From Candidatus Scatosoma sp. (GTDB taxonomy: Bacteria > Bacillota > Clostridia > Christensenellales > Borkfalkiaceae), in NCBI GenBank assembly GCA_045639305.1, contig JAZUCW010000083.1:1-34441 (forward strand): a DNA stretch of 34,441 bases, read 5' to 3'. Position numbers and translations under genes: made by a program. This document shows positions 11,659 to 34,441 of this stretch, piece by piece (position 1 is the stretch's first letter; every line of letters begins with the position of its first letter). Below the pieces are notes generated by a model. That model was not told where the DNA came from, searched no databases, and saw only the letters and a list, made by a program, of their open reading frames with translations.

Positions 11659-11744
11659 ATTATTTGGACAAGAACGGGTTAGATGAAAATCCGTTTATTC
11701 ATACGTCACAAAAATAATTTTTCATATATTGGAGGAACTCTATT

Positions 11745-12764
11745 ATGGCAAACGTAAAAGTTGCAATCAACGGTTTCGGCCGTATCGGTCGTCTTGCGTT
11801 CAGACAGATGTTCGACGCAGAAGGTTATGAAGTAGTTGCTATCAACGACCTTACCAGCCCCTCGATGCTCGCACACCTTTTGAAGTATGACACTGCGCAA
11901 GGCAGATACAAATACTGCGATAAGGTTACCGCTGACGACGAAGCAGGTACGATCACCGTTAACGGCAAGACCATTAAAATCTATGCTGAAAAAGACGCTG
12001 CAAACTGCCCTTGGGCTCAGTATGACGTTGACGTAGTTTTGGAATGCACCGGTTTCTACTGCTCCAAAGCAAAGAGCGAAGCGCACATCAAAGCAGGCGC
12101 TAAGAAAGTTGTTATCTCTGCTCCCGCAGGCAACGACCTTCCCACGATCGTTTACAGCGTAAACGAAAAGACGCTTACGAAGAACGACACGATCATCTCC
12201 GCAGCTTCCTGCACCACGAACTGCCTTGCTCCTATGGCAAACACCCTCAACAAGCTTTCCAAGATTAAGAAGGGTTATATGACCACGATCCACGCTTACA
12301 CCGGCGACCAGATGGTTCTTGACGGACCTCACAGAAAAGGCGACCTTCGTCGTGCTCGTGCGGCTGCTGCTAACATCGTTCCCAACTCCACGGGTGCAGC
12401 AAAAGCTATCGGTCTTGTTATTCCCGAACTCAACGGCATTCTTGACGGTTGCGCACAACGCGTTCCCGTTCCCACCGGTTCGCTTACCCAGCTCGTTGCA
12501 ATCTGCGACGGCGAAGTAGACCCAGCTACCGTAAACAAGGCTATGCAGAACGCAGCTTCCGCATCCTTCGGTTACACGGAAGAAGAACTCGTTTCCTCCG
12601 ACATCATCGGTATCACCTATGGTTCGTTGTTCGACGCTACGCAAACGAAGTGCATGCCCATGGGCGACGGCACGACGCTCGTTAAAGTCGTTTCCTGGTA
12701 CGACAACGAAAACTCCTACACCAGCCAGATGGTTAGAACGATTAAGTACTTCGCAGAACTTTAA
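11745..12764 (+). CDS. gap: Type I glyceraldehyde-3-phosphate dehydrogenase
   Basis: 339 aa. [20 protein letters not shown] is the NAD-binding GxGxxG region and [12 protein letters not shown] contains the catalytic Cys. WYDNENSY lies near the C-terminus. GGAGG RBS. Confidence 0.96.
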
Positions 12765-12799
12765 TCGTATCGGGGTTTGAAGAAAACCGAAAAAACGAA

Positions 12800-12829
12800 C
12801 TCCGACGGACACCCGTCGGAGGTTTTTTA
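12800..12829 (+). terminator. Rho-independent terminator after gap
   Basis: CTCCGACGG-ACAC-CCGTCGGAG followed by GTTTTTTATT. Confidence 0.85.
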
Positions 12830-15302: not shown

Positions 15303-16769
15303 GTGAATACGCCAACTTTGTCCTTAACGGAAAACGTAAAAGAAATAAAAAAACTACTCCCCGCGGAAGATATTCTGACCTTCGATTTTACGATGCAGGA
15401 TAAAACCGCCTGCGCCATCGTCTACGCCGACGGCGTCGTCAATAAAGAGGCGCTGGGCGATTTGGTCGCGCGCCCTTTGTCCAAGGTCGCTTTTTCAAAA
15501 AACGAAGGGGGCAGGGACGAGGCGAAAGAGGATTTTATCAAAAATTCGCTGCGCTTTCCCGAACTGAAAACCGCCCCGAATTTTGAAGACGCCGTCAAAG
15601 AAATTTTAGACGGGAACAGCGCGCTTTTTATCGACGGAATAAAAACCGTCTTTATCGTCGGCGCAAAAATGCCCCCGACGCGTGCCGTCATCGAACCGCC
15701 CACCGACGTTGCCATCAAGGGTCCAAGAGAGGGATTTATCGAAGATATCAAAATCAACATGGGACTTTTGCGCAAACGCCTCAAAACCCCCAATTTGCGT
15801 TTTGAAACGGTGCGCGTCGGCAAACAGTCGGACACCGCCGTTAGCATTTGCTATCTTGACGGCGTTGCCGATAACGCTTTAAAGGACGAAATCGTAAAGA
15901 AAGTGCAATCCTTGCAGATTGACAACGTCGCCGACTCGTCTTATATCGCCGCCTTGATATCCCCAAGAAAACACTCTCTTTTCCATACCCTCGGTACGAC
16001 GGAAAAACCAGACGTCTTTGCCGCAAAACTCAGCGAGGGCAGAGTGGGAATTTTGGTAGACGGATCGCCCATCGCCCTTACCGCACCGTACCTTCTGACG
16101 GAAGATTTGCAAAGCACCGAGGACTATTTCGTATCGCCGTTTGCGGCGACTGGTTTTCGGTTTTTACGCGCGCTTGCCTTGATCGTCGCCATCTTTTTGC
16201 CTGCATTTTATATCTCGGCGCAGCTTTTTAAAATGCAGCTTTTCCCGCTCGGCTTAACGCTGACCATCGCTAGCAGCGTGCGCGAATTGCCCTTATCGCC
16301 TAGCTTAGAAATGTTTGTCGTACTGCTCCTTCTCGAAATTTTAAAAGAGGCGAGTATCCGTATGCCCAAATACGTGGGCATGTCTTTATCTGTCGTCGGG
16401 GCTCTCGTTCTCGGCGAAACGGCGGTATCGGCAGGGTTTTTGTCTACGCCCGCTATCATCATCGTCGCTTTTTCGGGGATTTGTCTGTACACCGTCCCCA
16501 ATTTTGTGGAAACGGGGAGTCTTCTGCGCTGGTTGTTTTTAATCGTCGCGGGCAGCGTCGGGCCGTTCGGCATTGTGCTTTTTACCGCCTTTTTGCTATA
16601 TTATCTTTTATCTGCAGACGTTTTTGGCACACCCATTCTCGCGCCGTTTTCCCCCTTGCTGCCTCGGGATTTGCGCGATTCCGTTTTAAAATACGATATG
16701 CGCGCCTTATCCAAGCGTCCCCGTTTTTTACGCCCGAAAAATAAGACCCGTCTTAAAGAAAAAGATTAA
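15303..16769 (+). CDS. Spore germinant receptor subunit A (GerA/GerK family)
   Basis: 488 aa. It combines a soluble N-terminal half (LTENVKEIKKLL...DFTMQDKTACAIVYADGVVNKEAL...) with a C-terminal bundle of 4-5 TM helices, as in GerAA. The GTG start has no visible SD, so the start position is uncertain. Confidence 0.85.
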   Translation: MNTPTLSLTENVKEIKKLLPAEDILTFDFTMQDKTACAIVYADGVVNKEALGDLVARPLSKVAFSKNEGGRDEAKEDFIKNSLRFPELKTAPNFEDAVKEILDGNSALFIDGIKTVFIVGAKMPPTRAVIEPPTDVAIKGPREGFIEDIKINMGLLRKRLKTPNLRFETVRVGKQSDTAVSICYLDGVADNALKDEIVKKVQSLQIDNVADSSYIAALISPRKHSLFHTLGTTEKPDVFAAKLSEGRVGILVDGSPIALTAPYLLTEDLQSTEDYFVSPFAATGFRFLRALALIVAIFLPAFYISAQLFKMQLFPLGLTLTIASSVRELPLSPSLEMFVVLLLLEILKEASIRMPKYVGMSLSVVGALVLGETAVSAGFLSTPAIIIVAFSGICLYTVPNFVETGSLLRWLFLIVAGSVGPFGIVLFTAFLLYYLLSADVFGTPILAPFSPLLPRDLRDSVLKYDMRALSKRPRFLRPKNKTRLKEKD

Positions 16770-16774
16770 ACGAT

Positions 16775-16800
16775 GCCACCATGTACGAGATGAAATGAAA
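16775..16800 (-). repeat. Dispersed intergenic motif copy b (reverse strand: TTTCATTTCATCTCGTACATGGTGGC)
   Basis: Lies in the 48-nt spacer between the germinant receptor A and B genes, in inverted orientation relative to them. Confidence 0.55.
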
Positions 16801-16817
16801 AATATAGGAGAAACGCT

Positions 16818-17930
16818 ATGTCCTCGATTTTTGCATCCACCCCAAAAAACGAACGGGTTTATACCCGACAGCTTGCTTTCATCGCCGCCTTCTTACTGCC
16901 GATGGGCAAGCTTTTAGAAGCGCCGTCCATTTTGGCGCGCTCTGCCGCAGGCGATCTGCTTTTGCCTGCCATTTTACACTTTTTATTGCAGAGCCTTATT
17001 CTGCTTGGCGTATTGTTCGCCTGCTCGCAAAGCGAACAAACCCTGCTCGAACGCATGGAAAACAAGCTAGGGAAAGGGATTCTCGTTTTCTACGTGCTTT
17101 ACGGCGTTTATTTTCTCTTTGCGGCAGCTTTACCCCTGCTGGACATGGAAAAATTTGTGTACGCAGCCTTTTTCGACACCGCGCCCAGCACCTTTTCCTT
17201 CGCCGTCTTTTTCTTTTTCAGCGCCTACGCCTGCGCAAAGAATTTTAAATCGGTAGGGCGGAGCGGGGATATCAGCTTATTTCTGTTTTTGCTGCCCTTT
17301 TTCGCCCTCGTCTTAATGTCGTTCTCCGCCTCTGATTTTTCTTCGCTGTTGCCGTTGTTTGGAACAGATTTTAAACAAAGCCTCACCGCTTTTTCCGATT
17401 CGACCCCTTATTTTTCGGACGTCGCTTTGCTGTTGCCCCTTCTTGCCAGCCACCGCTACAAGAAAAACGACGGCGTGAAAATTGCCGCGGGGTATTGGTC
17501 GGGCGCGGCGTTTACCTTGCTCTTTCTCTCTATTTTTTACGGAGTCTATTCTTCGATTGCCGCAAGAGAGCATTACGCCTTTTCCAAAATCGCGCAGTAT
17601 TTCCCCGCCCTCAACGTGATTGGACGGATCGATTTGCTGTTCGTCTACCTTTTGACGATTATTTTGCTCTTTTATACCGTACTTCCCCTGCAGCATTTTA
17701 CCGAGCTCACCGCCCGAATTCTAAACACGAAGCGAAAAGCTCTTATCTCCGCTATTTTAAACTTTGCCCTGCTGTTTGTCGTGCTGTTCCTCAATCGTTT
17801 TTACAATCTTTTTCATACGCTAATCGAAGGGAAGCTGTCCCTTGTTTTTTGGCTCTTTGCAGATTTGCTGCCCTTATTTTTATTATTCTTGCCGAAAAAA
17901 CCGCAAGAAAGGAGACCTTTGTATGCATAA
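16818..17930 (+). CDS. Spore germinant receptor subunit B (GerAB-like, APC-transporter fold)
   Basis: 370 aa with about 10 predicted TM segments. It sits in the middle of an A-B-C operon. GGAG RBS at 16806..16810. Confidence 0.8.
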   Translation: MSSIFASTPKNERVYTRQLAFIAAFLLPMGKLLEAPSILARSAAGDLLLPAILHFLLQSLILLGVLFACSQSEQTLLERMENKLGKGILVFYVLYGVYFLFAAALPLLDMEKFVYAAFFDTAPSTFSFAVFFFFSAYACAKNFKSVGRSGDISLFLFLLPFFALVLMSFSASDFSSLLPLFGTDFKQSLTAFSDSTPYFSDVALLLPLLASHRYKKNDGVKIAAGYWSGAAFTLLFLSIFYGVYSSIAAREHYAFSKIAQYFPALNVIGRIDLLFVYLLTIILLFYTVLPLQHFTELTARILNTKRKALISAILNFALLFVVLFLNRFYNLFHTLIEGKLSLVFWLFADLLPLFLLFLPKKPQERRPLYA

Positions 17931-19128
17931 CCGCCACGCCAGAAACACCGTTCGCTATTACGTCCTTATCGCTGCCCTGCTTTCCTTTTTATTCTTCACC
18001 AACGATTTCGGTTTGATTGACGTACAGAAAACCGCCATCGTCATGGCGGCAGGCATCGATAGAGAGGGGGACGAGTTTATCATCACCTCGCAAATTGCCG
18101 TACCTCAAGCAAGCTCGCAAGGCAAGTCTACGCAAGCGGTACAAATCGTCAGCCGCGGCAAAACGGTCGCCGACGCCTTTGAAGAAATCAACGCCAAAAC
18201 GGGCTGGTATCCAAAACTCGTCTTTTGCGACCTGATTCTAATCGGCGCAGACGCTGCAAAAGAAAACGTCTTTGACGCGCTCGATTATTTTTTGCGCGAC
18301 GAATACCTCACCGACAACTGTTACGTCGCGACCTGCGCGGAAAAAGCGCAAACCCTTTTAAACACCGCCGCCCTCGTCGACCCGTCCAGCAGCGTAGCGA
18401 TGACGAAGGTGCTTTCCGACCACGCCGCACGGGTAGGCACGGTTGCACCCTCGACCTTGCGCGAGTTCGCCATCGGCTATTACGGGGACGCAAAGAGCGG
18501 ATTTTTGCCCGTGATAAAGCTGGAAGAGCAACAAGAAACCCCCGATCCGTCGCAAACGACAGCGCAAGGCGGGGGGCAAGAAAATCAGCAGGGCGGTCAA
18601 GGCGAACAAGAAAAGAACAAACCCGTATTCAGCGCGCAGGAAACGGCGCTGTTCGTGGGCGGAAAACAAGTGGAAACGTTGACGGCAGAAGAAACTTTTG
18701 CTTATAACGCCGTGAAAAACCGCCTGCAATTGGCTCCGTATACCGTGCAGAAAGAGAAAAACAACTGCACCCTTTCCATTCGGCAAAACGCCCCGAAAAT
18801 CAAATTGCAGGTAGGGCGGGACGGCAAAGCAAATTTGGAAATCAAGGTAACGCTGACAGCGGGCATTTTGGATTATTCGAAAGCCCTGCCCGTGGAAAAG
18901 ACGTCGGACGGCGGCGACGTGCCCGCAGGCGTATTTTCCGCCGCGGAAAAGAAACTATCCGGCGAAATTTCTTCCGTCTTTGAAAAAGCCCGCGCCTGCG
19001 GCTGCGATCTCTTCGGCGTACAAGACCTGTTGATAAAAAAAGAAAGCCGAACGTTGCACCGCTTTAAAAATACGCTGCTTTCCCATACCACCCCCACGGT
19101 AAAAATCCGCTTCCAAGGCGTTCGCTAA
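17923..19128 (+). CDS. Spore germinant receptor subunit C (Ger(x)C family), apparently without a lipobox cysteine
   Basis: ATG at 17923 follows AAGGAG and overlaps the gerB stop by 8 nt. Translation shows KTAIVMAAGIDREGDEFIITSQIAVP..., the typical start of the mature GerxC domain. The N-terminal hydrophobic segment YYVLIAALLSFLFFTNDFG contains no Cys. Confidence 0.8.
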   Translation: MHNRHARNTVRYYVLIAALLSFLFFTNDFGLIDVQKTAIVMAAGIDREGDEFIITSQIAVPQASSQGKSTQAVQIVSRGKTVADAFEEINAKTGWYPKLVFCDLILIGADAAKENVFDALDYFLRDEYLTDNCYVATCAEKAQTLLNTAALVDPSSSVAMTKVLSDHAARVGTVAPSTLREFAIGYYGDAKSGFLPVIKLEEQQETPDPSQTTAQGGGQENQQGGQGEQEKNKPVFSAQETALFVGGKQVETLTAEETFAYNAVKNRLQLAPYTVQKEKNNCTLSIRQNAPKIKLQVGRDGKANLEIKVTLTAGILDYSKALPVEKTSDGGDVPAGVFSAAEKKLSGEISSVFEKARACGCDLFGVQDLLIKKESRTLHRFKNTLLSHTTPTVKIRFQGVR

Positions 19129-19133
19129 GCGGC

Positions 19134-19589
19134 TTATCCACAGAGGGGAAAGTTATCCACATTTTTCGCCTTATCCACAATTTTTATCTTTTTTTTGCCG
19201 TCGATTTCTGTCGAAAAGTACGATTATAAATTCATACCGTATATGCGTATACCCGATTTTTTCCAAAATGTGGACAATTTTAGGGTTGTCCACGCCCCCT
19301 GCGAAATATGTGTGGATAACTTTTTGCCAAGTTTGTGGATAAGTTTTTATTTTAAAGGCTTTCACGCACAAAAACCCAAAAAACAGCCGTTTTTGGTGGA
19401 TAACTTTTCTTTTTTTAAAATTTTTCAATAAAAAAATTCTTTTTTCAATGGTGGAAAAGTGCCGTAAACGGCGGTTGAAAACGATAATTTTAAACAGAAA
19501 GCGTCGAAAAATAGTGAAAAATCCACACTTTATCCACAAACAAACGTTTATTTGGCAAAACGCGAGGTTTCTATCCACAGTTATCCACT
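19134..19589. other. DnaA-box cluster with an AT-rich tract (oriC-like or DnaA-titration element)
   Basis: Perfect TTATCCACA boxes on the + strand at 19134, 19153, 19171 and 19530. Perfect boxes on the - strand (TGTGGATAA) at 19311 and 19334. One-mismatch boxes at 19269(-), 19395(-), 19571(+) and 19581(+), and a two-mismatch box at 19286(+). An almost pure AT tract spans about 19405..19448. The region lies between convergent genes and has no credible ORF. Confidence 0.85.
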
Positions 19590-19632
19590 GTGTCAAAAGC
19601 TCGTTTTCTGCATAATTTGACGATTTGCCCGT

Positions 19633-19659
19633 ATAAAAACGCGACTGGTTGCAGTCGCG
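19633..19659 (-). terminator. Rho-independent terminator after cvpA
   Basis: The reverse strand reads CGCGACTG-CAAC-CAGTCGCG followed by TTTTTATA, 34 nt after the cvpA stop. Confidence 0.75.
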
Positions 19660-19692
19660 TTTTCGTGTTTTGGTATGCAATTGTAAATGCGC

Positions 19693-20406
19693 TTATAAAA
19701 ACAAGCCGATAAACCAAACGAGAGGGTTATGGTTGTACAAGAATCCGATAACGAGGCTTTCCGAAAGGAAATTTGCTATCCCTTGCGAGGGGATAAGGGT
19801 CAACACCGCCAACACGCCGCTAACAATCAGCGTGCCTTGTATGAGACCGATTACCGCGCCCAAAACGCTATTTACTGCGCCAAGCACGCACAGCCTATCC
19901 GCTAATTTTTGCAATAACTTGCTAATGAAATGTAATACCAGTTTGCAAAGAATAAACAACGCCACGCCGACGATCAACAAACAAATTAATTTTGCCACCA
20001 CCGTTCCCAGCGCCGCCCCGAGCGTCGTGCCCGCCACCGCGCCGTCGCCAAACCATTTTAAAACCAGCGAAGCAATCGTCGTGGAGAAATTCTGTTGCGC
20101 CAAAGCGCCCTCGATGCCCGATTGCGGGATTACCTTATCGAACCCCTCTTTTTTTGAAAACGAAGCGGTCAAAGAAGTTTCTAGCGAACCTTGCAACCCG
20201 AACAATCCGCCCGTTACGTTTAAAACGAGCTTTGCCAAGGTTATCGCCGCCACCAAGGCAAGCAGGGTGGAAACAAACCCGAACAAACAACTGACAAACC
20301 CCCGCCTTGCGCATACGATGACGTAACCAAGCAAGAAGAGCGCAACGACGCCGTCCACTACGTAATTCGACCATTTTACGGCGCAAAGTCCCGCAAAAAT
20401 TTCCAT
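19693..20406 (-). CDS. cvpA: CvpA-family membrane protein (colicin V production protein homologue)
   Basis: Start set to ATG 20406 (MEIFAGL..., AAGGAGG 8 nt upstream). Translation shows NYVVDGVVALFLLGYVIVCARRGFVSCLFGFVSTLLALVAA, the CvpA N-terminal pattern, and 4-5 TM helices. Confidence 0.75.
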   Translation of the reverse strand: MEIFAGLCAVKWSNYVVDGVVALFLLGYVIVCARRGFVSCLFGFVSTLLALVAAITLAKLVLNVTGGLFGLQGSLETSLTASFSKKEGFDKVIPQSGIEGALAQQNFSTTIASLVLKWFGDGAVAGTTLGAALGTVVAKLICLLIVGVALFILCKLVLHFISKLLQKLADRLCVLGAVNSVLGAVIGLIQGTLIVSGVLAVLTLIPSQGIANFLSESLVIGFLYNHNPLVWFIGLFL

Positions 20407-20448
20407 ACTCGCAACCTCCTTATCGATTATAAGGCTTTTTCCTTTCTT

Positions 20449-21834: not shown

Positions 21835-21866
21835 AACCGACCGTTTTGCGGTCGGTTCTTTTTTAT
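21835..21866. terminator. Bidirectional terminator between queT and rqcH
   Basis: AACCGACCG-TTTTG-CGGTCGGTT followed by CTTTTTTATT, with an A-run upstream for the reverse direction. Confidence 0.8.
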
Positions 21867-23545
21867 TCTTTGTGCGCGTTCGGTTTAACGAGCACCGTTT
21901 TATACTCGGTATAGGTTACGAACCCCGCCTTACTCTTGCTCGGCTTTTTCACGTATTTTCGCTTGCAATAATCCACGGGGATTTTATCTCCTTCCCGCCC
22001 GTCCGAATAATACGCGCAAATCTCTGCCGCGTATAAAAGGGTTTCATCTCGTACCTGCCCCCCTTGCGTAACGATAATTACGTGCGAGGAGTGATATTTT
22101 TGCGTATGCAGCCATATATCCTCAGGGGAAGACAAACGCAGCAATCTGTCGTTTTGGATATTGTTTCTGCCCGCGTAAATTTTCATGCCGCTATGCTCGT
22201 ACTCGCGGAAAGGCACGACGATTTCTTTCTTCTTCCCGCCGCGGGCAAGAGGCAATCTTACCAAGCCCATTTCGGCAAGTTCTTGTTCGATTTCTTTCAA
22301 ATCGTCCATCGTTTCCGCCCTCGTTACGGCGGATAAAACGCTGTCCGTATACGCGATTTCCTTTTCTTCCGCTTGCAGCATCGGCGACAAAATTTCTTTC
22401 GCGCGCTTATGCTTGTTATAATTTTTGAAATATTTCTGCGCGTTTTTAGCAGGGGATAAGAGGGGGTCTAACGCGATTTTTATCTTCTCGCAATCCGAAG
22501 AATACCAGTTTTCCAGTTCGATTGCCGCGCTTCCTTTTTCCACGCGGTACAAATTCGCCGTCAATAGCTCGCCTTTTATCCTAAGTTCGTCCGCTTTTTC
22601 CGCCTCTTGCAAGCGCTCTTTCGTATCCTGCCATTTTTTCAGTTGTTTTTTCTTCAAGCCCCGCGCAAGATTTTCCAGCTTTCTCTTTTTATCCGCAAAG
22701 CTCTTTTTCCCCTCGCGGCGGGTAAAAAACTCGTCCTCCGCTTCCCACAAGGTAGGGGTCTTTACGCCGCCCGACACGGGGAAGGCGAAAAAGTCCACCG
22801 CCTCGCCGCCTGACACTTTCACGCAGGGCAAGCAAGGCTCGTTTTCGCAAAACTCGCCGACGAATTCAAAGAGCGGTTTTTCGCTTTTTTTGCTACGCAA
22901 AGCCACCTCTCTTGCGGTGGATAACGCCAATCCGCAAACGTTTTCAAACAAAAACTCCGAAAGCGTTTCCTCGTCTATATTTTCACGATTAGAAAGATAG
23001 TTTTTAAAGCGTGAACGAATACCTGCCCCGTCGAAAGGTGATAATTTATCCTGCGGCGTTGGATAAAGATATCTCGCGCCAGCTAGCAAAATCCGCCTCG
23101 ACGAATCCTCCAAGGCGGTCGTTTTTAACGCCCCCAAAATTACGCCGTTCTCCGTCAAAACGACGTTGGAATATTTCCCCATCAACTCGCAATGCAAGGT
23201 GCGTTTGCTTTCGGAAAAATCCGTCGTGCAATGCAAATCCATTTCGATAATTCGCTCAAATTCGTATTGACGAACCTCTAAAATCTCCGCGCCTTGCAAA
23301 TGCTTTCGAAGGAGCATACAAAAATTGGGCGCAACGGGCGCAGGCTCTTTCTCTATCGCCGACAAACAAACGCGCGCATTCGACGCATTTGCGCTGAGAA
23401 TGAGTTTAACCGTCGATTTTCCGGTGTATATAATAAAGGTAAGCTCGTCCTTATTGACCTGTGAAATGCGATTTACCTTCCCGTGAACGAGAAGAGTATT
23501 CAGCTCGAAAGCCAATCTTCGTATGTGAAACGCGTCTTGTGGCAT
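21863..23545 (-). CDS. rqcH: Ribosome quality-control protein RqcH (NFACT / FbpA family)
   Basis: MPQDAFHIRRLAFELNTLLVHGKVNRISQVNKDELTFIIY is the NFACT-N domain. It also has a central coiled coil and a C-terminal NFACT-R block (WLHTQKYHSSHVII...AAEICAYYS). Start set to ATG 23545, with AGGAGG upstream. Confidence 0.88.
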   Translation of the reverse strand: MPQDAFHIRRLAFELNTLLVHGKVNRISQVNKDELTFIIYTGKSTVKLILSANASNARVCLSAIEKEPAPVAPNFCMLLRKHLQGAEILEVRQYEFERIIEMDLHCTTDFSESKRTLHCELMGKYSNVVLTENGVILGALKTTALEDSSRRILLAGARYLYPTPQDKLSPFDGAGIRSRFKNYLSNRENIDEETLSEFLFENVCGLALSTAREVALRSKKSEKPLFEFVGEFCENEPCLPCVKVSGGEAVDFFAFPVSGGVKTPTLWEAEDEFFTRREGKKSFADKKRKLENLARGLKKKQLKKWQDTKERLQEAEKADELRIKGELLTANLYRVEKGSAAIELENWYSSDCEKIKIALDPLLSPAKNAQKYFKNYNKHKRAKEILSPMLQAEEKEIAYTDSVLSAVTRAETMDDLKEIEQELAEMGLVRLPLARGGKKKEIVVPFREYEHSGMKIYAGRNNIQNDRLLRLSSPEDIWLHTQKYHSSHVIIVTQGGQVRDETLLYAAEICAYYSDGREGDKIPVDYCKRKYVKKPSKSKAGFVTYTEYKTVLVKPNAHKE

Positions 23546-23598
23546 ACTCCCTCCTTTTTCCGCGCGAAGGTTTTCCATAGCGGTTTTTTCTTTCTTAA

Positions 23599-23627
23599 AT
23601 TATACCGCAAATTTATGAAATTGTAAA
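23599..23627 (-). promoter_or_regulatory. Sigma-A promoter for rqcH (TTTACA-17-TATAAT)
   Basis: The reverse strand reads TTTACA-ATTTCATAAATTTGCGG-TATAAT. Confidence 0.6.
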
Positions 23628-23741
23628 TAAAAACGAGTGAAAAAGAGCGAAAAACGCTTTATTTTCTTCAATAAATATGGTAAAATAGAAAACAGTGTAA
23701 AACAAAAAATAAAAAACAGCAATAGATTTAGGAGAAACGTT

Positions 23742-25040
23742 ATGAAACACACTACCAAAGCGGCAGAAAAAAGCACGGTAAAAATCACCCTCAAATTCGA
23801 CGGTGAAGAATGGAAAGCAGCGCAACAGAACGCTTATTTGAAGACGAGAGGCAGATTTGCTATCAACGGCTTCCGTAAAGGCAAAGCGCCCAAGAACGTT
23901 ATCGAAAACGTATACGGCAAAGGCGTATTCTACGAAGACGCACTCAACAACCTTTTCTCGGAAAACTACGGCAAGGTTTTGGACAAGGAATCCAAAAAAT
24001 ATACCTTCGTTGGCGATCCCGACGTATCCGTTGAAAAATTGGAAGACGACGGCGTAACCCTCGTTGCTATCGTTGCAGTAAAACCCGAGGTAAAAATTTC
24101 CTCCTACAAGGGTATGAAAATTCAGCAATTCGCGTATACTGTTAAAGACGAAGAAATCGAAGCGGAACTTAACCGCGTTTTGGATAGAAACGCTCGCAAA
24201 GTGGAAATCACCGACAGAGCAGCACAAAACGGCGATATCGTCAACATCGACTTCGTCGGTACGGTTGACGGCGTTAAATTCGACGGCGGCGAAGCGCAAG
24301 GCTTTGATCTTACCCTCGGCAGCGGTCAGTTCATCCCCGGCTTTGAAGATCAAGTCGTTGGCATGAACGTAGGCGAAACGAAAGACGTCAACGTAACCTT
24401 CCCTGAAAACTATCAGGCAGAAAACTTGAAGGGCAAAGCGGCTGTTTTTGCAGTAACCGTACACAAGATTCAGGGCAAAGAACTTCCCAAGCTCAACGAC
24501 GAATTCATCAAGGAAGCTACGGGCAGCGAAACGGTAGAAGCGTACAAAGCAAAGACCGCGGAAAGATTGCAAAAGCAAGCAGACCGCCGTGCAAACGACG
24601 CAACGGAAAACAGCATCCTCGAAGCAATCGCAGCAAATGCAGAAGCGGAAATTCCCCAAGCAATGATCGATAGAGAAATCGATTCCATCGTTCAAAAATT
24701 CGAATATCAGTTGATGTATCAGGGCTTGAAATTGCAAGATTACCTCTCCTTCTTGAAGGTAACGGAAGCTGATTTTAGAAAGCAGTACGAAGACCAAGCA
24801 AAGAAGAACGTTATGCACCAGCTTATCATCTCCCAGATCATCAAGGACGAAAACCTTGAAGCAACGGAAGAAGAAGTTGACGCAAAAGTAGCAGAACAAG
24901 CGGCTTCGGTAGAAAAGAGCTTGGAAGAATACAAGAAGAATATGGACCCTCGTCAGTTCGATTATATCCGCAGCGATATCGTCATCACGAAGCTGTTCGA
25001 CTTCTTGAAGGCTAACAACGAAATGTACGTAGAAGCGTAA
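23742..25040 (+). CDS. tig: Trigger factor (ribosome-associated chaperone / PPIase)
   Basis: Start at ATG 23742 after AGGAG. FAINGFRKGKAPKNVIENVYG is the ribosome-binding signature GFRxGxxP. It also has an FKBP-like core (GDIVNIDFVGTVDGVKFDGGEAQGFDLTLGSGQFIPGFEDQVVGM). Confidence 0.95.
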   Translation: MKHTTKAAEKSTVKITLKFDGEEWKAAQQNAYLKTRGRFAINGFRKGKAPKNVIENVYGKGVFYEDALNNLFSENYGKVLDKESKKYTFVGDPDVSVEKLEDDGVTLVAIVAVKPEVKISSYKGMKIQQFAYTVKDEEIEAELNRVLDRNARKVEITDRAAQNGDIVNIDFVGTVDGVKFDGGEAQGFDLTLGSGQFIPGFEDQVVGMNVGETKDVNVTFPENYQAENLKGKAAVFAVTVHKIQGKELPKLNDEFIKEATGSETVEAYKAKTAERLQKQADRRANDATENSILEAIAANAEAEIPQAMIDREIDSIVQKFEYQLMYQGLKLQDYLSFLKVTEADFRKQYEDQAKKNVMHQLIISQIIKDENLEATEEEVDAKVAEQAASVEKSLEEYKKNMDPRQFDYIRSDIVITKLFDFLKANNEMYVEA

Positions 25041-25111
25041 AGCGCTTTTACCCACGCGAAACGCATAGCGCAAAACGCGCCGTGCGTTTCGAAATCAATT
25101 AAGGACCGATT

Positions 25112-25705
25112 ATGGAAAAGAACGTTTTAATTCCCTACGTCGTAGAACGCACCTCTTCGGGGGAACGCACCTACGATTTGTATTCCCGTCTTTTGGACGA
25201 CCGCATCATTTTTTTAAGCGGTGAAATCAACGACGCTTTGGCAAACACCGTCGTCGCGCAGCTTATCTACCTGGAAGGGAAAGATTCGACGAAGGATATC
25301 AGCTTGTATATCAACTCTCCCGGCGGCTCGGTTTCGGCAGGGATGGCGATTTACGACACGATGAACTATATCAAATGCGACGTATCCACGATTTGTATCG
25401 GCTTGGCGGCGTCGATGGGCGCGTTCTTACTTTCCAGCGGCGCAAAGGGCAAACGGTATGCGTTGCCCAATTCTGAAATTATGATCCACCAGCCCCTTGG
25501 CGGCGCGCAGGGACAGGCGAGCGACATCAAAATTCAGGCAGAACACATTCTCCGCACGAAAGCGAAGCTCAATTCTATCCTTTCCAAAAACACGGGCAAG
25601 GATATCGAAACCATCGAAAAAGACACCGACCGCGACAATTACCTGTCGGCGGACGAAGCAAAAGAATACGGGCTTATCGACAAGGTTTTCGTCAGCAGAG
25701 GTTAA
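25112..25705 (+). CDS. clpP: ATP-dependent Clp protease proteolytic subunit
   Basis: 197 aa. [44 protein letters not shown] (catalytic Ser) and IMIHQPLGG (catalytic His). Confidence 0.96.
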
Positions 25706-25715
25706 TAAAAATACG

Positions 25716-25747
25716 CGCGCAAAACGGTAGGTTTTGCGCGTTTTATT
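25716..25747 (+). terminator. Rho-independent terminator/attenuator after clpP
   Basis: CGCGCAAAAC-GGTAG-GTTTTGCGCG is a perfect 10-bp stem followed by TTTTATT. Confidence 0.8.
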
Positions 25748-25855
25748 CCCCCGCCTTTTTCAAAACGCGTGGGACAGGTATGCAATGAAACTCTTTTCAC
25801 AAAAAATTTTTTCCTTGCATATCGTTACATTGTAAAAAGGAATTGGAGTTTTTCT

Positions 25856-27100
25856 ATGTCTAATAAAAATCAGCATTGTTCTTTCTGCGGCAAACCCAAG
25901 GAAGAAACCCGCCGTCTTATTACGGGTCCCGACGGGGCTTGTATCTGCGACGAATGCGTGGAAATCTGCAAATCGATGGTAGACGAATGGTCGGGCAGCG
26001 ACAAAGAGCCCTCTTCGCAAGTACCTTTGAAAAAACCCGCCGAAATCAAGGCGGAACTCGATCAGTATATCGTCGGGCAGGATAAGGCAAAACGGGTCCT
26101 TTCCGTTGCGGTATACAACCATTACAAACGCATCAACGCCAGCGCGGCGGCAAAGAAAAAAGACGACGACGGCATCGAAATCGAAAAGAGCAACGTACTT
26201 TTGCTCGGGCCTACGGGCAGCGGTAAAACCCTGCTTGCGCGGACCCTTGCCAAAATCCTCAACGTGCCGTTCGCAACCTCCGACGCAACCACGCTTACCG
26301 AAGCGGGCTACGTAGGCGAGGACGTGGAAAATATTTTGTTAAAACTTATCCAAAACGCCGATTACGATATCGAACGCGCACAACGCGGCATTATCTATAT
26401 CGACGAAATCGATAAAATCGCAAGAAAGAGCGAAAACCTTTCCATCACCCGCGACGTATCGGGCGAGGGCGTGCAGCAGGCGCTTTTGAAAATTATCGAA
26501 AGCACGACGGCAAGCGTTCCCCCGCAGGGCGGCAGAAAACACCCCAACCAGGAATGTCTTCGTATCGACACGACGAATATCCTCTTTATCTGCGGCGGTG
26601 CGTTCGTAGGTCTGGACAAAATCGTTTCCTCCCGCAAGGACGACACCACCCTCGGCTTTGGCGGAAAGGTGCGCTTGGGCGCAAACGAAGCGGATTATTC
26701 GGTACTCGACGACGTGAAACCGCAGGATTTGACGAAATTCGGTTTGATTCCCGAATTCGTAGGCAGACTTCCCATCGTCGTCAACCTCGACCCGCTCGGC
26801 GAAGACGCGCTGATTAAGATTTTAACCGAACCGAAGAACGCCATCATCAAGCAGTATCAAAAACTGGTCGGTTTTGACGGCGTAAAACTGACGGTAGAGG
26901 ACGACGCGGTGCGCGAAATCGCGCAGACGGCAATCCGTTTGAAGACGGGCGCGCGCGGCTTGCGTACGATTATCGAAAACGTGATGACGGACGTTATGTA
27001 CAAAATCCCGTCCGAAGACAACGTAGAAGAGGTCGTTATCACGAAAGAATGTTTGACGGACGGCGCTTCGCCGAAACTCGTTTACAAACAATCGGCATAA
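25856..27100 (+). CDS. clpX: ATP-dependent Clp protease ATP-binding subunit ClpX
   Basis: Start at ATG 25856 ([13 protein letters not shown]). It has a zinc ribbon (CSFCG...CICDEC), Walker A GPTGSGKT, Walker [10 protein letters not shown] and the pore loop/sensor region. Confidence 0.96.
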
Positions 27101-27112
27101 AGATGAAATGAA

Positions 27113-27145
27113 AAACACGGCGGTTTATTCCGCCGTGTTTTTTGC
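27113..27145 (+). terminator. Terminator after clpX, overlapping the 3' end of the convergent transporter gene
   Basis: ACACGGCGG-TTTATTC-CGCCGTGT followed by TTTTTTG. The stop codon of the minus-strand gene (27125..27127) lies in the loop. Confidence 0.8.
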
Positions 27146-28051
27146 TTGTTCTTTTTTACGTTTCGTTTTCGAAGTCAGCCATTTGACAACCGCCGCGCCA
27201 ATGATGATACAGTACCCTGCCACGCTCCAATAATCGGGATATTGCGAGAGGAACACCGCCCCCCAAACCGCCGCGAATAGCACTTGCGAATAATCGTAAA
27301 CGGAAATATCCTTTGCGGGCGCGTACGAATATGCCGCCGTTACGGTAAACTGCGCCCCGCTTGCCGCTACGCCCGCCAAGAGCAGCCAAACTACTTGCAT
27401 GGTTTCCATCGGGTGATAATCAAGCAAAACCATCGGCAGCATGGATACGCAGGAAAAAGCGGAAAAGAAAAAGACGATAACCGCTTTTCGTTCGCCGCGC
27501 TGCCCTAAATATCGAACAAACGTGTACGCAAGCCCTGCCGACATACCGCCGAGCACCCCGACAAGCACGGGCACGCCCTGCGAAAACCCAAACGAAGGCT
27601 TGGCGATAAACACCGCGCCTAAAAAGGCTACGCCGACAAGCAACCATTCTTTCCACGACGCCTTTTCCTTTAAAAGGAGTATCGAAAAAACGATCGAGAA
27701 AAAGGGCGCGAGCTTGTTCAAAATCGATGCGTCGGAAATGGGCAGATGGTCGATGGCGTAAAAGTTACACACAATCCCGATCGTACCCGCAATCGAGCGC
27801 GCCAACAAGGCGGGAAGGTTGCCTTTTTGCCATTTAAAATTCCCGTCTTTTACGAGCAACACAAAGGCGACGAGCGCGGCGACAAGATTTCTAAAAAAGG
27901 ATTTTTGAAAGACGGGTAAATCCCCTGCAAGCCGCACGAACAAACTCATCAGCGAATAGAAAAAGGCAGAAAAAAGAATACAGAGCACCCCTTTAAAATG
28001 GCTGCTTTGCGTCTTTTGCGGAGTATGAAGTTGTTCCGACTTGTTCACCAT
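27125..28051 (-). CDS. DMT-superfamily (EamA-type) transporter
   Basis: 308 aa with about 10 TM helices and two EamA-like halves. The N-terminal half contains FSAFFYSLMSLFVRLAG. No SD precedes the start (see the leaderless promoter feature). Confidence 0.75.
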   Translation of the reverse strand: MVNKSEQLHTPQKTQSSHFKGVLCILFSAFFYSLMSLFVRLAGDLPVFQKSFFRNLVAALVAFVLLVKDGNFKWQKGNLPALLARSIAGTIGIVCNFYAIDHLPISDASILNKLAPFFSIVFSILLLKEKASWKEWLLVGVAFLGAVFIAKPSFGFSQGVPVLVGVLGGMSAGLAYTFVRYLGQRGERKAVIVFFFSAFSCVSMLPMVLLDYHPMETMQVVWLLLAGVAASGAQFTVTAAYSYAPAKDISVYDYSQVLFAAVWGAVFLSQYPDYWSVAGYCIIIGAAVVKWLTSKTKRKKEQAKNTAE

Positions 28052-28057
28052 ACTTCT

Positions 28058-28086
28058 ATTATACGCCTCGTAGAAAAAAATAGCAA
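28058..28086 (-). promoter_or_regulatory. Sigma-A promoter placed for a leaderless transporter mRNA (TTGCTA-17-TATAAT, 6 nt, then ATG)
   Basis: The reverse strand reads TTGCTA-TTTTTTTCTACGAGGCG-TATAAT-AGAAGT-ATG. The A of the ATG (28051) sits 7 nt after the -10 hexamer. Confidence 0.6.
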
Positions 28087-28089
28087 TGC

Positions 28090-28130
28090 AAAAAAAAGAA
28101 AAACCCGATTTTCTTTTCGAAAAATCGGGT
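28090..28130 (-). terminator. Rho-independent terminator after rpmA
   Basis: The reverse strand reads ACCCGATTTT-TCGAAAAG-AAAATCGGGT followed by TTTTCTTTTTTTT. Confidence 0.8.
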
Positions 28131-28149
28131 TGGTTATCCGTTTACGGAT

Positions 28150-28425
28150 TTACGCGTTGGGATAAACGCTTGCTTTCTTTCTGTCTTTGCCCATTCTTTC
28201 ATACCGAACAACGCCGTCTACGAGCGCAAACAACGTATCGTCTTTACCGATACCAACGTTTGCACCGGGATGGATCTTCGTGCCTCTCTGGCGAACGAGG
28301 ATGTTCCCTGCGAGAACCGACTGGCCGTCGCTACGCTTTACGCCAAGTCTTTTCGCTTCGCTGTCTCTCCCGTTGTGGGAAGAACCGGTACCTTTTTTAT
28401 GAGCGAATAAACTGATAAAAATCAT
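28150..28425 (-). CDS. rpmA: 50S ribosomal protein L27, with a 7-residue N-terminal extension
   Basis: Translation [31 protein letters not shown]...[11 protein letters not shown]. The E. coli mature N-terminus aligns at AHKK. AAGGAG sits 8 nt upstream of ATG 28425 and fixes the start. Confidence 0.95.
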
Positions 28426-28485
28426 CTTTATTTCTCCTTAAAAATCTTTTTTCTGCTTACCCTAAATCAAGGGCAGCCCGTGCAA

Positions 28486-28791
28486 TTAGAGTTCGATTTT
28501 TTCAACTTTAACTGCGGTGAAGGGTTGTCTGTGACCCTGCTTCTTACGCTCGTTTTTCTTTGCTTTGTACTTAAAGACGATAATTTTCTTCGCCTTGTCC
28601 TGCTTAACGACCGTAGCGGTAACCTTTGCAGAAGCAACTTCCGCGCCGGTCTTGATACCGTTTTCGTCAGCAACCATCAGCACTTTAAAGGAAACGGTTT
28701 CGCCTTCCGCTGCTGCAAGTTTTTCAACTCTTACAACGTCGCCTTCCGCAACTTTATACTGCTTGTTGCCGTTATCGATGATAGCGTACAT
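28486..28791 (-). CDS. rplU: 50S ribosomal protein L21
   Basis: Start at ATG 28791 ([25 protein letters not shown]...), with GAGGAGG upstream. Contains [25 protein letters not shown]. The 22-codon upstream extension in the ORF track is leader sequence. Confidence 0.95.
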
Positions 28792-28897
28792 AAAGTTTTT
28801 ACCTCCTCTTTCCAGTCTCGAAGAATATCCAAGGCGCGGATTTTTCCTTATTTTCAAGAAAAAATGCCGACTTAAAAAAGCCCGTTTCTATCGGCTC
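28792..28897 (-). ncRNA. Structured 5' leader of rplU-rpmA (possible L21-leader-type autoregulatory element)
   Basis: There are about 105 nt between the predicted transcription start and the ATG. The reverse strand holds nested or alternative hairpins: GCCGA...UCGGC followed by AUUUUUUC, and AGCC-GAUAGAAAC-GGCU followed by UUUUU. I cannot align it to the Rfam L21_leader model by eye. Confidence 0.35.
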
Positions 28898-28904
28898 GAC
28901 TATC

Positions 28905-28934
28905 ACTATACCATATTCCCTTCTTTTTCGTCAA
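28905..28934 (-). promoter_or_regulatory. Sigma-A promoter for rplU-rpmA (TTGACG-18-TATAGT, TG-extended)
   Basis: The reverse strand reads TTGACG-AAAAAGAAGGGAATATGG-TATAGT. Confidence 0.65.
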
Positions 28935-29022
28935 GCATTTTTGCAGGAAAATCCAAGATTTTTTCGATATTTTTCAGTATTGCCCGCCCGCCTTTTACGC
29001 ACACTATAAAAAAGGAGGCATC

Positions 29023-29469
29023 ATGGAACAAAAACCCTTTAAAAAACCGGAGGAAGCACTCTCCGAAATCTACCGCAACGCACAGCTTGCTCTCGAATCG
29101 ATTTCCGATATCCTGCCCGCTGTCGACGACGAAGAACTCAGAACCGAGCTTTTATCTCAGCACGAACAATACGAACACTTTTCTGCCAAAGCGCAAATGC
29201 TCGCCAAAAACCTTGGCACCGAATTGAAAGAGCCGGGCGCCTTTAAAAAAATGATGATGTGGGGCTCGATTAAAATGAGCACCTTAACGGACAACTCCCG
29301 CGCGCATATTGCGGATATGATGATTCAAGGCACGGTGATGGGAATTACCGCCCTTCGCACGACGGCAAGCGAATTGCCCATCGACGGCAACGACGAAATC
29401 CTCGCCCTGCTGGATGAAATGATCAAAACGGAAGAAGGTTTTGAAAAGAAGTGGAAAGAATATCTCTAA
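29023..29469 (+). CDS. Hypothetical all-helical protein (four-helix-bundle / ferritin-like appearance)
   Basis: 148 aa with a strong RBS (AAGGAGG, 5 nt spacer). It has heptad-like helical segments and no TM or signal peptide. I do not recognise a family with confidence. Confidence 0.6.
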   Translation: MEQKPFKKPEEALSEIYRNAQLALESISDILPAVDDEELRTELLSQHEQYEHFSAKAQMLAKNLGTELKEPGAFKKMMMWGSIKMSTLTDNSRAHIADMMIQGTVMGITALRTTASELPIDGNDEILALLDEMIKTEEGFEKKWKEYL

Positions 29470-29472
29470 CCC

Positions 29473-29500
29473 ATACCCGCCCTCATCGGCGGGTATTTTC
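29473..29500 (+). terminator. Probable terminator after the hypothetical gene
   Basis: ATACCCGCC-CTCATC-GGCGGGTAT followed by TTTC. The T-run is short. Confidence 0.55.
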
Positions 29501-29550
29501 ATCTCGTACACGGTAGCCTTGTTTTATTTCATTTCGTACATGGTATCCCC
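29498..29550 (+). repeat. Dispersed intergenic motif, two tandem copies d1 and d2
   Basis: TTTCATCTCGTACACGGTAGCC (29498..29518) and TTTCATTTCGTACATGGTATCCCC (29527..29550), with starts 29 nt apart. Confidence 0.65.
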
Positions 29551-29620
29551 ATTTTTATCCATGCGAATCGACAAAGTTTTCTTGACAAGATTTCCCCGTT
29601 CTCTTTACTTTTTCAAAAGT

Positions 29621-29641
29621 TTATGTTATACTATAACATAA
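29621..29641. promoter_or_regulatory. Perfect 21-bp palindrome overlapping the likely -10 of the rlmI-like gene
   Basis: TTATGTTATA-C-TATAACATAA has 10-bp arms. TGTTATACT (29624..29632) reads as an extended -10, with TTTACT 17 nt upstream. It lies 22 nt before ATG 29663. Confidence 0.5.
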
Positions 29642-29662
29642 GAACGAATTTCGAGGGGTTTT

Positions 29663-30829: not shown

Positions 30830-30870
30830 ACGGCTTGTAAAAGGAAACAACGCACAAAATAACGGATTTT

Positions 30871-31827: not shown

Positions 31828-31846
31828 TTTAGTTTAAGGATATTTT

Positions 31847-32701: not shown

Positions 32702-32704
32702 TTT

Positions 32705-32727
32705 CCCCCTACCAGGTACGAGATTAA
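32705..32727 (-). repeat. Dispersed intergenic motif copy e (reverse strand: TTAATCTCGTACCTGGTAGGGGG)
   Basis: Begins 4 nt after the ricT stop codon, in inverted orientation. Confidence 0.5.
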
Positions 32728-33628: not shown

Positions 33629-34309
33629 CCGTTCTTTTCCCTGCCCCCTTGGATACAAAGCAGGGGTATTTTTTATTTTTTCCACGACAGCCAACACCCT
33701 TTCCCCATAATTTTCAGGCAACGAATAGGGCAGTATTTCCTTTATTTTTCCGCCCAGTATAGCGCAAGCGTTTTTCGCCTCTTCTATCTCGTTTATATCC
33801 CCGCTTTTATAAGCGACAAATTTTCCTCCCACCTTTACGAAAGGCATACAATATTCGCAAAGTGTGTTCATCCTTGCCACCGCACGCGCCGTCGCGATAT
33901 CATATTTTTCTCTATACTTTTTATCCCTTGCGGCATCCTCGGCACGAATGTTATAAATATGCACGTTTTTTAAGTGCAATTTATCCACAACCGCTTTTAA
34001 AAATTCGCATTTTTTCCCAACGCTTTCAAAAAGGTCGAACTTTAAATCTTCACGCAATATTTTTAAAACGATAGAAGGAAACCCAGCCCCTGAACCAATC
34101 TCTGCCACGAACGCGTCTTTTTTAAACAACTCCATTCCCGCCGCGCTGTCTAAAAAATGCTTATAATACATATCTTTTTCTTCTAAAATCGTCGTAAGAT
34201 TGTATTTTTTGTTGTATTCTAACAGCATTGCGCGGAATTCTTCTAATTTTTCCTTTCCGTCGCCTAATACTTTTTCTTTGTATATGTTTTCAATATCTAA
34301 ACTTTTCAT
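33614..34309 (-). CDS. rsmG: 16S rRNA (guanine527-N7)-methyltransferase
   Basis: YNKKYNLTTILEEKDMYYKHFLDSA, the SAM motif AEIGSGAGFPSIVL, and ATARAVA...GGKFVAYKS. The start is either ATG 34309 (MKSLDIEN) or ATG 34321. The latter lies inside the predicted -10 box, so I prefer 34309. Confidence 0.9.
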   Translation of the reverse strand: MKSLDIENIYKEKVLGDGKEKLEEFRAMLLEYNKKYNLTTILEEKDMYYKHFLDSAAGMELFKKDAFVAEIGSGAGFPSIVLKILREDLKFDLFESVGKKCEFLKAVVDKLHLKNVHIYNIRAEDAARDKKYREKYDIATARAVARMNTLCEYCMPFVKVGGKFVAYKSGDINEIEEAKNACAILGGKIKEILPYSLPENYGERVLAVVEKIKNTPALYPRGQGKERKNPL

Positions 34310-34319: not shown

Positions 34320-34348
34320 ATTATACCATCTTTTTACAAAAATAGCAA
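34320..34348 (-). promoter_or_regulatory. Sigma-A promoter for rsmG (TTGCTA-17-TATAAT, TG-extended)
   Basis: The reverse strand reads TTGCTA-TTTTTGTAAAAAGATGG-TATAAT. ATG 34309 lies only 10 nt after the -10 box, so the leader would be about 4 nt. Confidence 0.6.
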
Positions 34349-34396
34349 ACTTTTTTTTCATGCTTTTTTATTTCTTCCACTTTGCTGTGCAGTAAG

Positions 34397-34427
34397 TTAT
34401 CCACTTGTTTATAACCTATGTGGATAA
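34397..34427. other. DnaA boxes at the right window edge (cluster possibly continues outside)
   Basis: TTATCCACT (34397..34405, one mismatch) and a perfect TGTGGATAA (34419..34427) lie 50-80 nt upstream of the rsmG promoter. AT-rich sequence runs to the window end. Confidence 0.6.
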
Positions 34428-34441
34428 CTATTTTATTTTAT

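Follow-up and report, generated by a model that had tools for sequence, protein, structure and literature searches.

The 34,441-bp contig JAZUCW010000083.1 of Candidatus Scatosoma sp. (NCBI GenBank assembly GCA_045639305.1) was analysed over its entire length, which is referred to below as the window. In the gap between the convergent genes gerAC and cvpA, the window carries a dense cluster of binding sites (boxes) for the replication initiator DnaA, which we call cluster A. From the anatomy of the region, we consider it moderately probable that cluster A is a DnaA sink or modulator which lies outside the origin of replication (oriC) and is duplicated right after initiation. Cluster A is very probably not the origin. 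Judged from sequence, the real oriC of this lineage is predicted to be cluster B, a smaller second box cluster which is located between rsmG and ypsA-dnaN and was found in every relative.

Four origin features were looked for at cluster A and not found: DnaA-trios, a conserved unwinding element, a skew sign change and adjacency to dnaA or dnaN. One origin feature, the cluster of DnaA boxes, is present. Cluster A also has three features of the DnaA-box clusters (DBCs) of Bacillus subtilis and of datA of E. coli, namely many consensus boxes off the origin, origin proximity and conservation. It is because of the origin features that are missing and the DBC-type features that are present that cluster A is read here as a DnaA sink or modulator.

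A conserved DnaA-box cluster between gerAC and cvpA

Six perfect TTATCCACA boxes lie in the gap, at 19134(+), 19153(+), 19171(+), 19311(-), 19334(-) and 19530(+), and the motif scan placed them exactly at the positions and on the strands reported in the initial annotation of this contig. The whole 34.4-kb window holds 8 perfect boxes compared with 0.07 expected, and none of the 100 dinucleotide-preserving shuffles of the window from which the expectation was derived reached 8. The two perfect boxes outside the gap (33981+ within rsmG and 34419- upstream of it), on which the initial annotation did not remark, belong with the origin. Its count of five boxes with one or two mismatches was too low: four boxes with one mismatch (19269-, 19395-, 19571+ and 19581+) and six with two were found in the gap. 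Within 460 bp, cluster A has 10 boxes with at most one mismatch, and several of these either abut or are spaced by about two helical turns.

The gap had been described as a stretch without a gene which lies between convergent 3' ends and is not a promoter region, and this is borne out by scans for open reading frames (ORFs), Rfam families and promoters and by the Pfam assignments of the neighbours. No ORF in the gap was conserved past the closest relatives, and the other matches were translated DnaA boxes. The Rfam search of the gap returned no family, its sole match having an E-value of 0.13 and 23 bits against a threshold of 155 bits, and promoter-like sites in the gap were not in excess (3 compared with 1.8 expected). 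On the basis of these scans a hidden small gene, small RNA or promoter was rejected, and since no conserved ORF, Rfam family or promoter was seen in the gap, cis-regulation of a gene is unlikely. GerAC, which matches Pfam Spore_GerAC_N/Spore_GerAC, is encoded on the plus strand and its last base is 19128. The cvpA product on the other side of the gap is about 238 aa long, a length set by comparison with homologues. Hairpins equivalent to the one next to cvpA (Table 1) are found beside cvpA in relatives too.

Relatives were reached via CvpA and RsmG homologues, which led to loci (L numbers) from about 10 related uncultured Clostridia of gut and rumen metagenomes; a profile search with a 7-sequence CvpA alignment yielded 4 loci. 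Cluster A was found at the same syntenic cvpA/gerAC site in nine genomes, each with 4-7 perfect and 3-8 one-mismatch boxes; the loci named with it are L013, L005, L009, L014, L015, L018, L021 and L022. The orthologous intergenic region of the relatives thus carries a box cluster as well, a point on which the initial annotation had made its functional readings depend. The conserved block is queT-yyaC-cvpA-[520-700 bp gap]-gerAC-gerAB-gerAA-methyltransferase-rsmI-Zn peptidase.

CvpA identity across the nine cluster-A genomes is 43-94%, and 43-50% in the distant ones. The spacers between boxes are mostly unalignable among relatives. Since the boxes were kept while the spacers diverged and CvpA fell to 43-50% identity, purifying selection on the boxes is indicated, and cluster A is judged to be under selection and to be neither a chance feature nor a relic. 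In every genome cluster A has more perfect boxes than cluster B, which has only 0-3. With at most one mismatch allowed, cluster A has 10-14 boxes and cluster B 4-7.

A few short elements recur in the A gaps: the abutting direct pair on the cvpA side, TTATCCACA with the following AACAAACGTT, the variant GGTTGTCCAC, the flank AAAGTTATCCAC and the 21-mer TGTCGAAAAGTACGATTATAAAT. The abutting pair, CTATCCACA-g-TTATCCACT at 19571 and 19581, is kept in L003/L013, L005 and L018, and the conserved AACAAACGTT comes after the perfect box at 19530. L003/L013 and L018 likewise carry two or three direct boxes at the gerAC-proximal end. The GGTTGTCCACG variant at 19286(+), with two mismatches, was found again in cluster B.

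The 21-mer is not a DnaA box, and its first 7 bases are TGTCGAA, which we take to be the '0A box' consensus of Spo0A. TCGAAAA was found in all 6 of the distant A regions examined, and the longer motif is recognisable in the window, L003/L013, L005, L018 and L009 (as the reverse complement). The density of TGTCGAA in the A gaps is about 15-fold that of the flanks (7 in about 4.1 kb compared with 16 in about 139 kb), a raw figure uncorrected for the AT-rich composition.

Table 1. Coordinates of cluster A, its elements and associated features in the window
Feature	Position	Strand	Remarks
gerAA-gerAB-gerAC germinant receptor operon	15303..19128	+	Pfam GerA, Spore_permease, Spore_GerAC; 3' end abuts cluster A
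Cluster A	19129..19692	no strand	Non-coding, convergent gerAC/cvpA gap; 6 perfect, 4 one-mismatch and 6 two-mismatch DnaA boxes
Direct triplet of perfect boxes, TTATCCACA	19134..19179	+	Starts 19134, 19153, 19171; spacing 19 and 18 bp
Non-box motif TGTCGAAAAGTACGATTATAAAT	19209..19231	+	Conserved 21-mer; first 7 bases TGTCGAA
Inverted box group	19269..19342	-	TTGTCCACA 19269- (1 mismatch), GGTTGTCCACG 19286+ (2 mismatches), perfect 19311- and 19334-
Box TTATCCACC	19395..19403	-	1 mismatch; directly adjoins the AT tract
AT-rich tract	19404..19448	no strand	About 89% A+T; no adjacent DnaA-trio array
cvpA-proximal direct boxes	19519..19589	+	AAATCCACA (2 mismatches), TTATCCACA 19530, abutting pair 19571/19581
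GC-rich hairpin with A/T runs on either side	19636..19663		Putative bidirectional terminator for cvpA and backstop for gerA read-through
cvpA	19693..20409	-	Colicin_V family; 3' end abuts cluster A
Perfect DnaA box in rsmG coding sequence	33981..33989	+	Same place in L005 (1135), L009 (2479), L021 (10372) and L023 (10321)
Outer edge of cluster B	34322..34441		Boxes 34397+ (1 mismatch) and 34419- (perfect), then start of AT tract

Cluster B and the origin of the lineage

From its outer to its inner side, cluster B begins with two or three boxes and continues with an AT tract some 70 bp long, several more boxes, an unwinding module and the ypsA promoter. In the unwinding module, TTGTCCACA and aTTCCACt are followed by a short spacer containing GC, after which come the DnaA-trio array CTACTACTAATACTACTA and an AT-rich element. 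Full coordinates of cluster B are available for L017 (6501-6897), L018 (9522-10001), L020 (9495-10001), L005 (1463-2229) and L009 (1775-2168). The gene order around it is rsmG / oriC / ypsA-dnaN-rpmH-rnpA-(yidD)-yidC-jag, in which dnaN is directly followed by rpmH. With these parts cluster B has the basal unwinding system of Firmicutes, which is made up of tandem boxes, DnaA-trios whose consensus is 3'-GAT-5' and an unwinding element (PMC8287927). The trio array, which reads CTA on the box strand, is expected no more than about 16 bp away from a single box or a pair of boxes (PMC8287927, PMC7561715). That of cluster B nearly matches the trio CACCTACTACTATTACTACTATGA of Clostridioides difficile oriC2 (PMC7561715).

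We scanned the loci for arrays of six or more in-phase [C/T/A]T[A/T] triplets, of which three or more are CTA. Exactly one array was found per locus, and it was in cluster B in every case; the array in B of L017 was missed by the scan as a result of a phase shift but is plain on reading the sequence. The scan found no array in the window or in any A region, and the DnaA-trio repeats which the initial annotation had proposed to look for beside the AT tract of cluster A were not there. The T-run after the box at 19171 satisfies a very permissive (NAN)x3 trio rule and is not conserved.

The least stable 40-bp stretch of cluster A, at -37 to -43 kcal/mol, is more stable than that of cluster B, at -35.6 to -37.2 kcal/mol. 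In the cluster A of the window it begins at 19399, and its place and sequence differ between relatives. The A/T tract in the middle of the gap was correctly noted in the initial annotation (Table 1). Its position and composition vary among relatives, and in L003/L013 it is already interrupted by G/C. It resembles the outer 'GGTGGATA(A/T)CTTTT + AT tract' module of B rather than the unwinding element, and the module 'TTTTGGTGGATAACTTTT + AT tract' from 19395 on is similar to the outer part of cluster B. A duplication of B as the source of A was considered and rejected, as only short box-plus-AT-tract matches and no extended homology were found.

In an alignment with L017, L018 and L020, the final 120 bases of the window match the outer edge of their cluster B. 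The window therefore appears to end inside oriC, with the trio array and the unwinding element beyond the contig end. The closest relative by RsmG, L017 (87% identical), continues with ypsA, dnaN, rpmH, rnpA, yidC and jag. Several genomes have the perfect box of the rsmG coding sequence (Table 1) at a similar place, about 310-370 nt in. Constraint on the protein sequence (…VVDN…) could account for its retention, or the box may act as an additional DnaA site that flanks the origin.

Neither dnaA nor dnaN was detected within the window by Pfam scans and tblastn, as the initial annotation had stated for dnaA. No Pfam Bac_DnaA match was found among the called genes of any examined locus, and tblastn with a hand-written DnaA probe gave no match in 24 records (388 kb with redundancy). 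An origin uncoupled from dnaA, one of the two explanations first offered for cluster A, would hold for this lineage, but the locus is cluster B and not A. In its layout, cluster B looks like a fused, self-sufficient oriC1+oriC2 after dnaA loss, in which ypsA has come to lie between dnaN and the unwinding element.

The distance between A and B is about 15 kb in the window (19.4 to 34.4 kb), 8-9 kb in L005, L009, L014, L018, L021 and L022, and more than 10.7 kb in L023; among the relatives overall it is 8-11 kb. Between 9 and 16 genes lie between the two clusters. As a rule, a Firmicute origin adjoins dnaA, dnaN or both. The neighbours of A are gerAC and cvpA, and dnaN adjoins cluster B in all relatives.

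GC skew, rearrangements and gene order

The all-position GC skew of the window falls steadily. It is confounded by gene orientation, and third-codon GC skew per gene (GC3) was therefore used instead, calculated on the plus strand with bootstrap intervals over 20-34 kb per genome. Skew from automatic ORF calling is noisy and was used as support only. In the window, GC3 skew was -0.150 [-0.22, -0.08] left of A and -0.201 [-0.25, -0.16] from A to the right end, with no change at A. A sign change at B was seen in L020 (-0.13 to +0.16), L018 (about 0 to +0.15), L009 (-0.30 to about 0) and, with automatic ORF calls, L014 (-0.30 to +0.08). No sign change at A was found in any genome examined. In L023, skew values of +0.04 to +0.31 were obtained for all genes of over 300 bp that lie between B and the A block, rplU excepted; forks leaving B would produce this pattern.

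A replication origin at cluster A, as the initial annotation had also suggested, is at odds with the lack of a trio array, the AT tract that is not conserved in position and the unchanged GC3 skew. That annotation regarded an origin at A as untenable if the skew switch and a dnaA-linked box cluster with its own unwinding element lay elsewhere. Both were located elsewhere, at B, which is dnaN-linked and not dnaA-linked.

The genes dnaN-rpmH-rnpA-yidC-jag are almost without GC3 skew in L018, L005, L009, L021, L022 and L023, and the DNA on either side has 0.15-0.3. The coding-strand skew of jag is consistently negative. The neutrality of this operon may come from codon bias or from frequent flipping around the origin. 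The skew of tig-clpP-clpX was considered as evidence of fork direction and rejected: the coding-strand GC3 of tig and clpP is -0.2 to -0.3 in either orientation, so that it reflects codon bias and is uninformative on fork direction.

Among large rearrangements of bacterial chromosomes, those most often seen are inversions about the origin. Compared with L018, the whole jag-to-NFACT segment including B is inverted in the window (window 21863-34321; L018 4183-20702, about 17 kb), and the closest relatives L003/L013 have at least the NFACT-queT junction of this inversion. In L023 the A block has changed sides relative to B through an inversion. In L009 ypsA is flipped relative to rsmG, and in L022 the NFACT-tig-clpP-clpX block is flipped. 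At least three inversions pivot on B (window, L023 and L009). Through these changes queT-yyaC-cvpA-A-gerCBA-MTase-rsmI travels as one block, always 8-15 kb from B.

The genes tig-clpP-clpX, holB and yaaT are head-on to forks from B in the window and in L018/L020; in the window this placing results from the jag-NFACT inversion, which includes oriC. A head-on placing less than 10 kb from the origin is unusual for highly expressed Firmicute genes.

The order of genes in the window was obtained by Pfam scans. From the left end it is gyrA(-), gyrB(-), dus(-), mazG(-), a polysaccharide-synthesis/SpoVB-like gene(-), an alpha-L-fucosidase gene(-) and two tyrosine phosphatase genes(+), followed by a gene at 11.7-12.8 kb, a Zn peptidase gene(-), rsmI(-), an MTS methyltransferase gene(-), gerAA-AB-AC(+) and cluster A. 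To the right of A lie cvpA(-), yyaC/DUF1256(+), queT(+), NFACT(-), tig-clpP-clpX(+), EamA(-) and three small ORFs(+), and the right end is formed by a PUA methyltransferase gene(+), holB(+), yaaT/PSP1(+), a GNAT gene(-) and rsmG(-).

At 11.7-12.8 kb two long ORFs overlap on opposite strands. The minus-strand ORF (11706-12812, 368 aa) has no Pfam match and an aberrant third-codon skew. The plus-strand ORF (11745-12764, 339 aa) fits in size and place the GAPDH gene beside the Zn peptidase in L005 and L012, and is probably the real gene of the pair. The gyrB-gyrA spacer, of about 370 bp, is unusually long. It contains about 12 tandem copies of the heptamer GGAATTC at 831-933, an array nested within a 46-bp unit which is present twice. 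Direct repeats lie close to the array, GGCAACGTGCCGTTG at about 817 and about 958 and CGAGTAGTTACACGAAACGG at about 929 and about 1030.

Possible roles of cluster A

Cluster A is a predicted binding platform which would take up many DnaA molecules. It would buffer or modulate the initiator pool open to the real origin at B, as proposed for DBCs and datA. Lying so close to oriC, it would be copied within seconds of initiation, and the sink would then be doubled just when re-initiation must be blocked. We infer by analogy that DnaA may bind cluster A in vivo and that such binding may lower the initiation potential. The titration-cluster reading of DBC/datA type, which was the second explanation in the initial annotation, fits all findings: the many boxes, the location outside oriC and 8-15 kb off, the lack of a promoter and the presence in nine genomes.

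Like the DBCs of B. subtilis (2012, PMC3245932; Smith and Grossman 2015, PMC4447404), cluster A consists of intergenic consensus and near-consensus boxes in a spore-forming Firmicute and is proximal to oriC but outside it. These DBCs have been proposed to sequester or inactivate DnaA (PMC3245932; PMC4447404), and initiation came early when the six of them outside oriC were deleted together (PMC3245932). Among Bacillus genomes, DBCs lie beside different genes yet nearly always close to oriC (PMC3245932). Cluster A is orthologous to none of the six, since its neighbours are cvpA and gerAC. Unlike them, it lies between two 3' ends without a promoter, is much closer to oriC (8-15 kb) and is fixed in position across a clade of uncultured Clostridia.

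Cluster A also resembles E. coli datA, a compact cluster of high-affinity boxes in the origin-proximal part of the chromosome which lowers the initiation potential and is duplicated soon after initiation. datA has five boxes and an essential IHF site and acts largely by stimulating the hydrolysis of DnaA-ATP; cluster A has twice as many consensus boxes. To our knowledge, Firmicutes lack several of the E. coli cofactors. The AT tract of cluster A could host a site for a nucleoid protein of IHF type.

oriCII of Pseudomonas, upstream of gidA, is likewise reported to be a non-working second box cluster near the true origin and beside gid/rsmG-type genes (PMC13438810). It is reported to be located at a promoter and to control the transcription of gidAB-parAB; cluster A differs in having no promoter context.

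Several points weigh against a role as a DnaA sink. Titration in uncultured organisms is argued from anatomy and analogy. The A-B interval (8-9 kb) is nearly skew-neutral in L018, L005, L009, L021 and L022, with a skew step, though no sign change, at A. A box adjoins the AT tract of cluster A, and the 'GGTGGATAACTTTT + AT tract' module is common to A and B; both would also fit an oriC1-like role. Finally, dnaA was not located in the 388 kb searched, and further clusters or a dnaA-linked origin may lie elsewhere.

For the skew step at A a gene-specific explanation is at hand: in L023 the dnaN-jag operon does not adjoin A and is just as neutral, and the step is therefore attributed to a bias of the operon. 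The neutrality of the A-B interval is accordingly thus probably, in the main, a property of the dnaN-jag operon. Firing from both A and B, which the neutral interval had raised as a candidate, is weakened by the skew in L023 and by the neutrality of the operon there.

The likeness to oriC1 is the basis of another explanation, which we regard as unlikely: cluster A may be the distal half of a split (bipartite) origin, with DnaA at A and at B bridging the two and looping out 8-15 kb, which would aid or tune unwinding at B. The model for it is oriC1/oriC2 looping out dnaA in B. subtilis, C. difficile and Helicobacter pylori. Like oriC1 (incA/incB) of B. subtilis and C. difficile, cluster A has many boxes in both orientations around an AT stretch and no trios (PMC7561715). 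The 10-14 boxes of A and 4-7 of B resemble the 9-19 of clostridial oriC1 and 5-9 of oriC2 (PMC7561715), and the GGTTGTCCAC box variant and the AT-tract module are common to A and to the unwinding half. Cluster A also stays near B through several inversions, and the dnaA gene which normally separates the halves has been lost from the region. However, cluster B has its own outer boxes, AT tract, inner boxes, trios and unwinding element, and looks self-sufficient. In known bipartite origins oriC1 immediately precedes dnaA, with oriC2 about 1.5 kb away, whereas A is 8-15 kb and 9-16 genes off without an adjacent dnaA. Unlike oriC1, cluster A lies on either side of the unwinding region (L023 compared with L018), and its distance, side and orientation vary among the window, L018 and L023, to which a fixed looping geometry is ill-suited.

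A further reading seems quite unlikely, in which this clade of gut and rumen Clostridia has rebuilt its origin region, with dnaA gone, oriC1 and oriC2 fused ahead of ypsA-dnaN and a satellite, cluster A, retained 8-15 kb off. Rather than a passive sink, this satellite would be an active long-range partner of B, licensing or restraining unwinding by DnaA-mediated looping, or a back-up initiation site. If true, the A-B partnership would be the first bipartite origin with halves separated by many genes, and would explain the near-absent A-B skew in five genomes.

It is likewise a distinctly doubtful proposal that the role of cluster A is to regulate its neighbours or sporulation, whereby DnaA, possibly with Spo0A, would act as a roadblock, a terminator aid or a link from replication to germination, akin to the DnaA boxes at sda, ywlC and yydA of B. 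subtilis. TGTCGAA stands within the conserved 21-mer in the A of most relatives at its raised density, the neighbours are sporulation and germination genes (gerA operon, yyaC), and regulation of adjacent genes is known for some B. subtilis DBCs (PMC3245932). Against this, cluster A is at the 3' ends of both neighbours with no conserved promoter, ORF or RNA inside, and its at least 10 consensus boxes far exceed the needs of a roadblock or operator. The 0A-like motif, moreover, is absent from L014 and L018, and its enrichment carries the compositional limit given above.

Very unlikely is a functionless leftover of the ancestral stretch upstream of dnaA (oriC1 together with the dnaA promoter), stranded when dnaA left. 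The origin region is heavily rearranged, dnaN now runs directly into rpmH-rnpA-yidC-jag with dnaA gone, and cluster A is oriC1-like in appearance, but a relic would decay, and the perfect 9-mers have been kept where the spacers are unalignable.

That cluster A is itself a replication origin, sole or alternative and uncoupled from dnaA, is extremely improbable: it has the highest consensus-box density of the region and an AT tract flanked by a box, the genes of the window are mostly on the minus strand to its left and on the plus strand to its right, and strong GC3 skew begins only outside the A-B interval in several relatives, but the canonical trio array is in B and in no A, the AT tract is unfixed and less unstable than that of B, the L023 genes between B and A are skewed as for forks from B with no sign change at A, rearrangements pivot on B and not on A, and if A fired, the genes dnaN-rpmH-rnpA-yidC-jag would face the fork head-on in the common arrangement (L018, L020, L021, L005 and L009).

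Experiments on DnaA-box clusters outside the origin have been made in few model species only, and their positions are reported to be variable among Bacillus species. Here such a cluster is fixed at one syntenic site across a clade of uncultured spore-forming Clostridia, exceeds the origin in consensus boxes and has stayed with it through repeated inversions. As a candidate DnaA sink, cluster A offers comparative evidence that origin-proximal sinks for DnaA may be under selection well beyond Bacillus and E. coli. Origin finders which rank by box count would choose the wrong locus here; the DnaA-trio array, and not box density, marks the true origin. An oriC without adjacent dnaA (rsmG / oriC / ypsA-dnaN-...-jag) is a less common layout among Firmicutes, and its recognition is useful for the annotation of metagenome-assembled genomes and for coverage-based estimates of growth rate.

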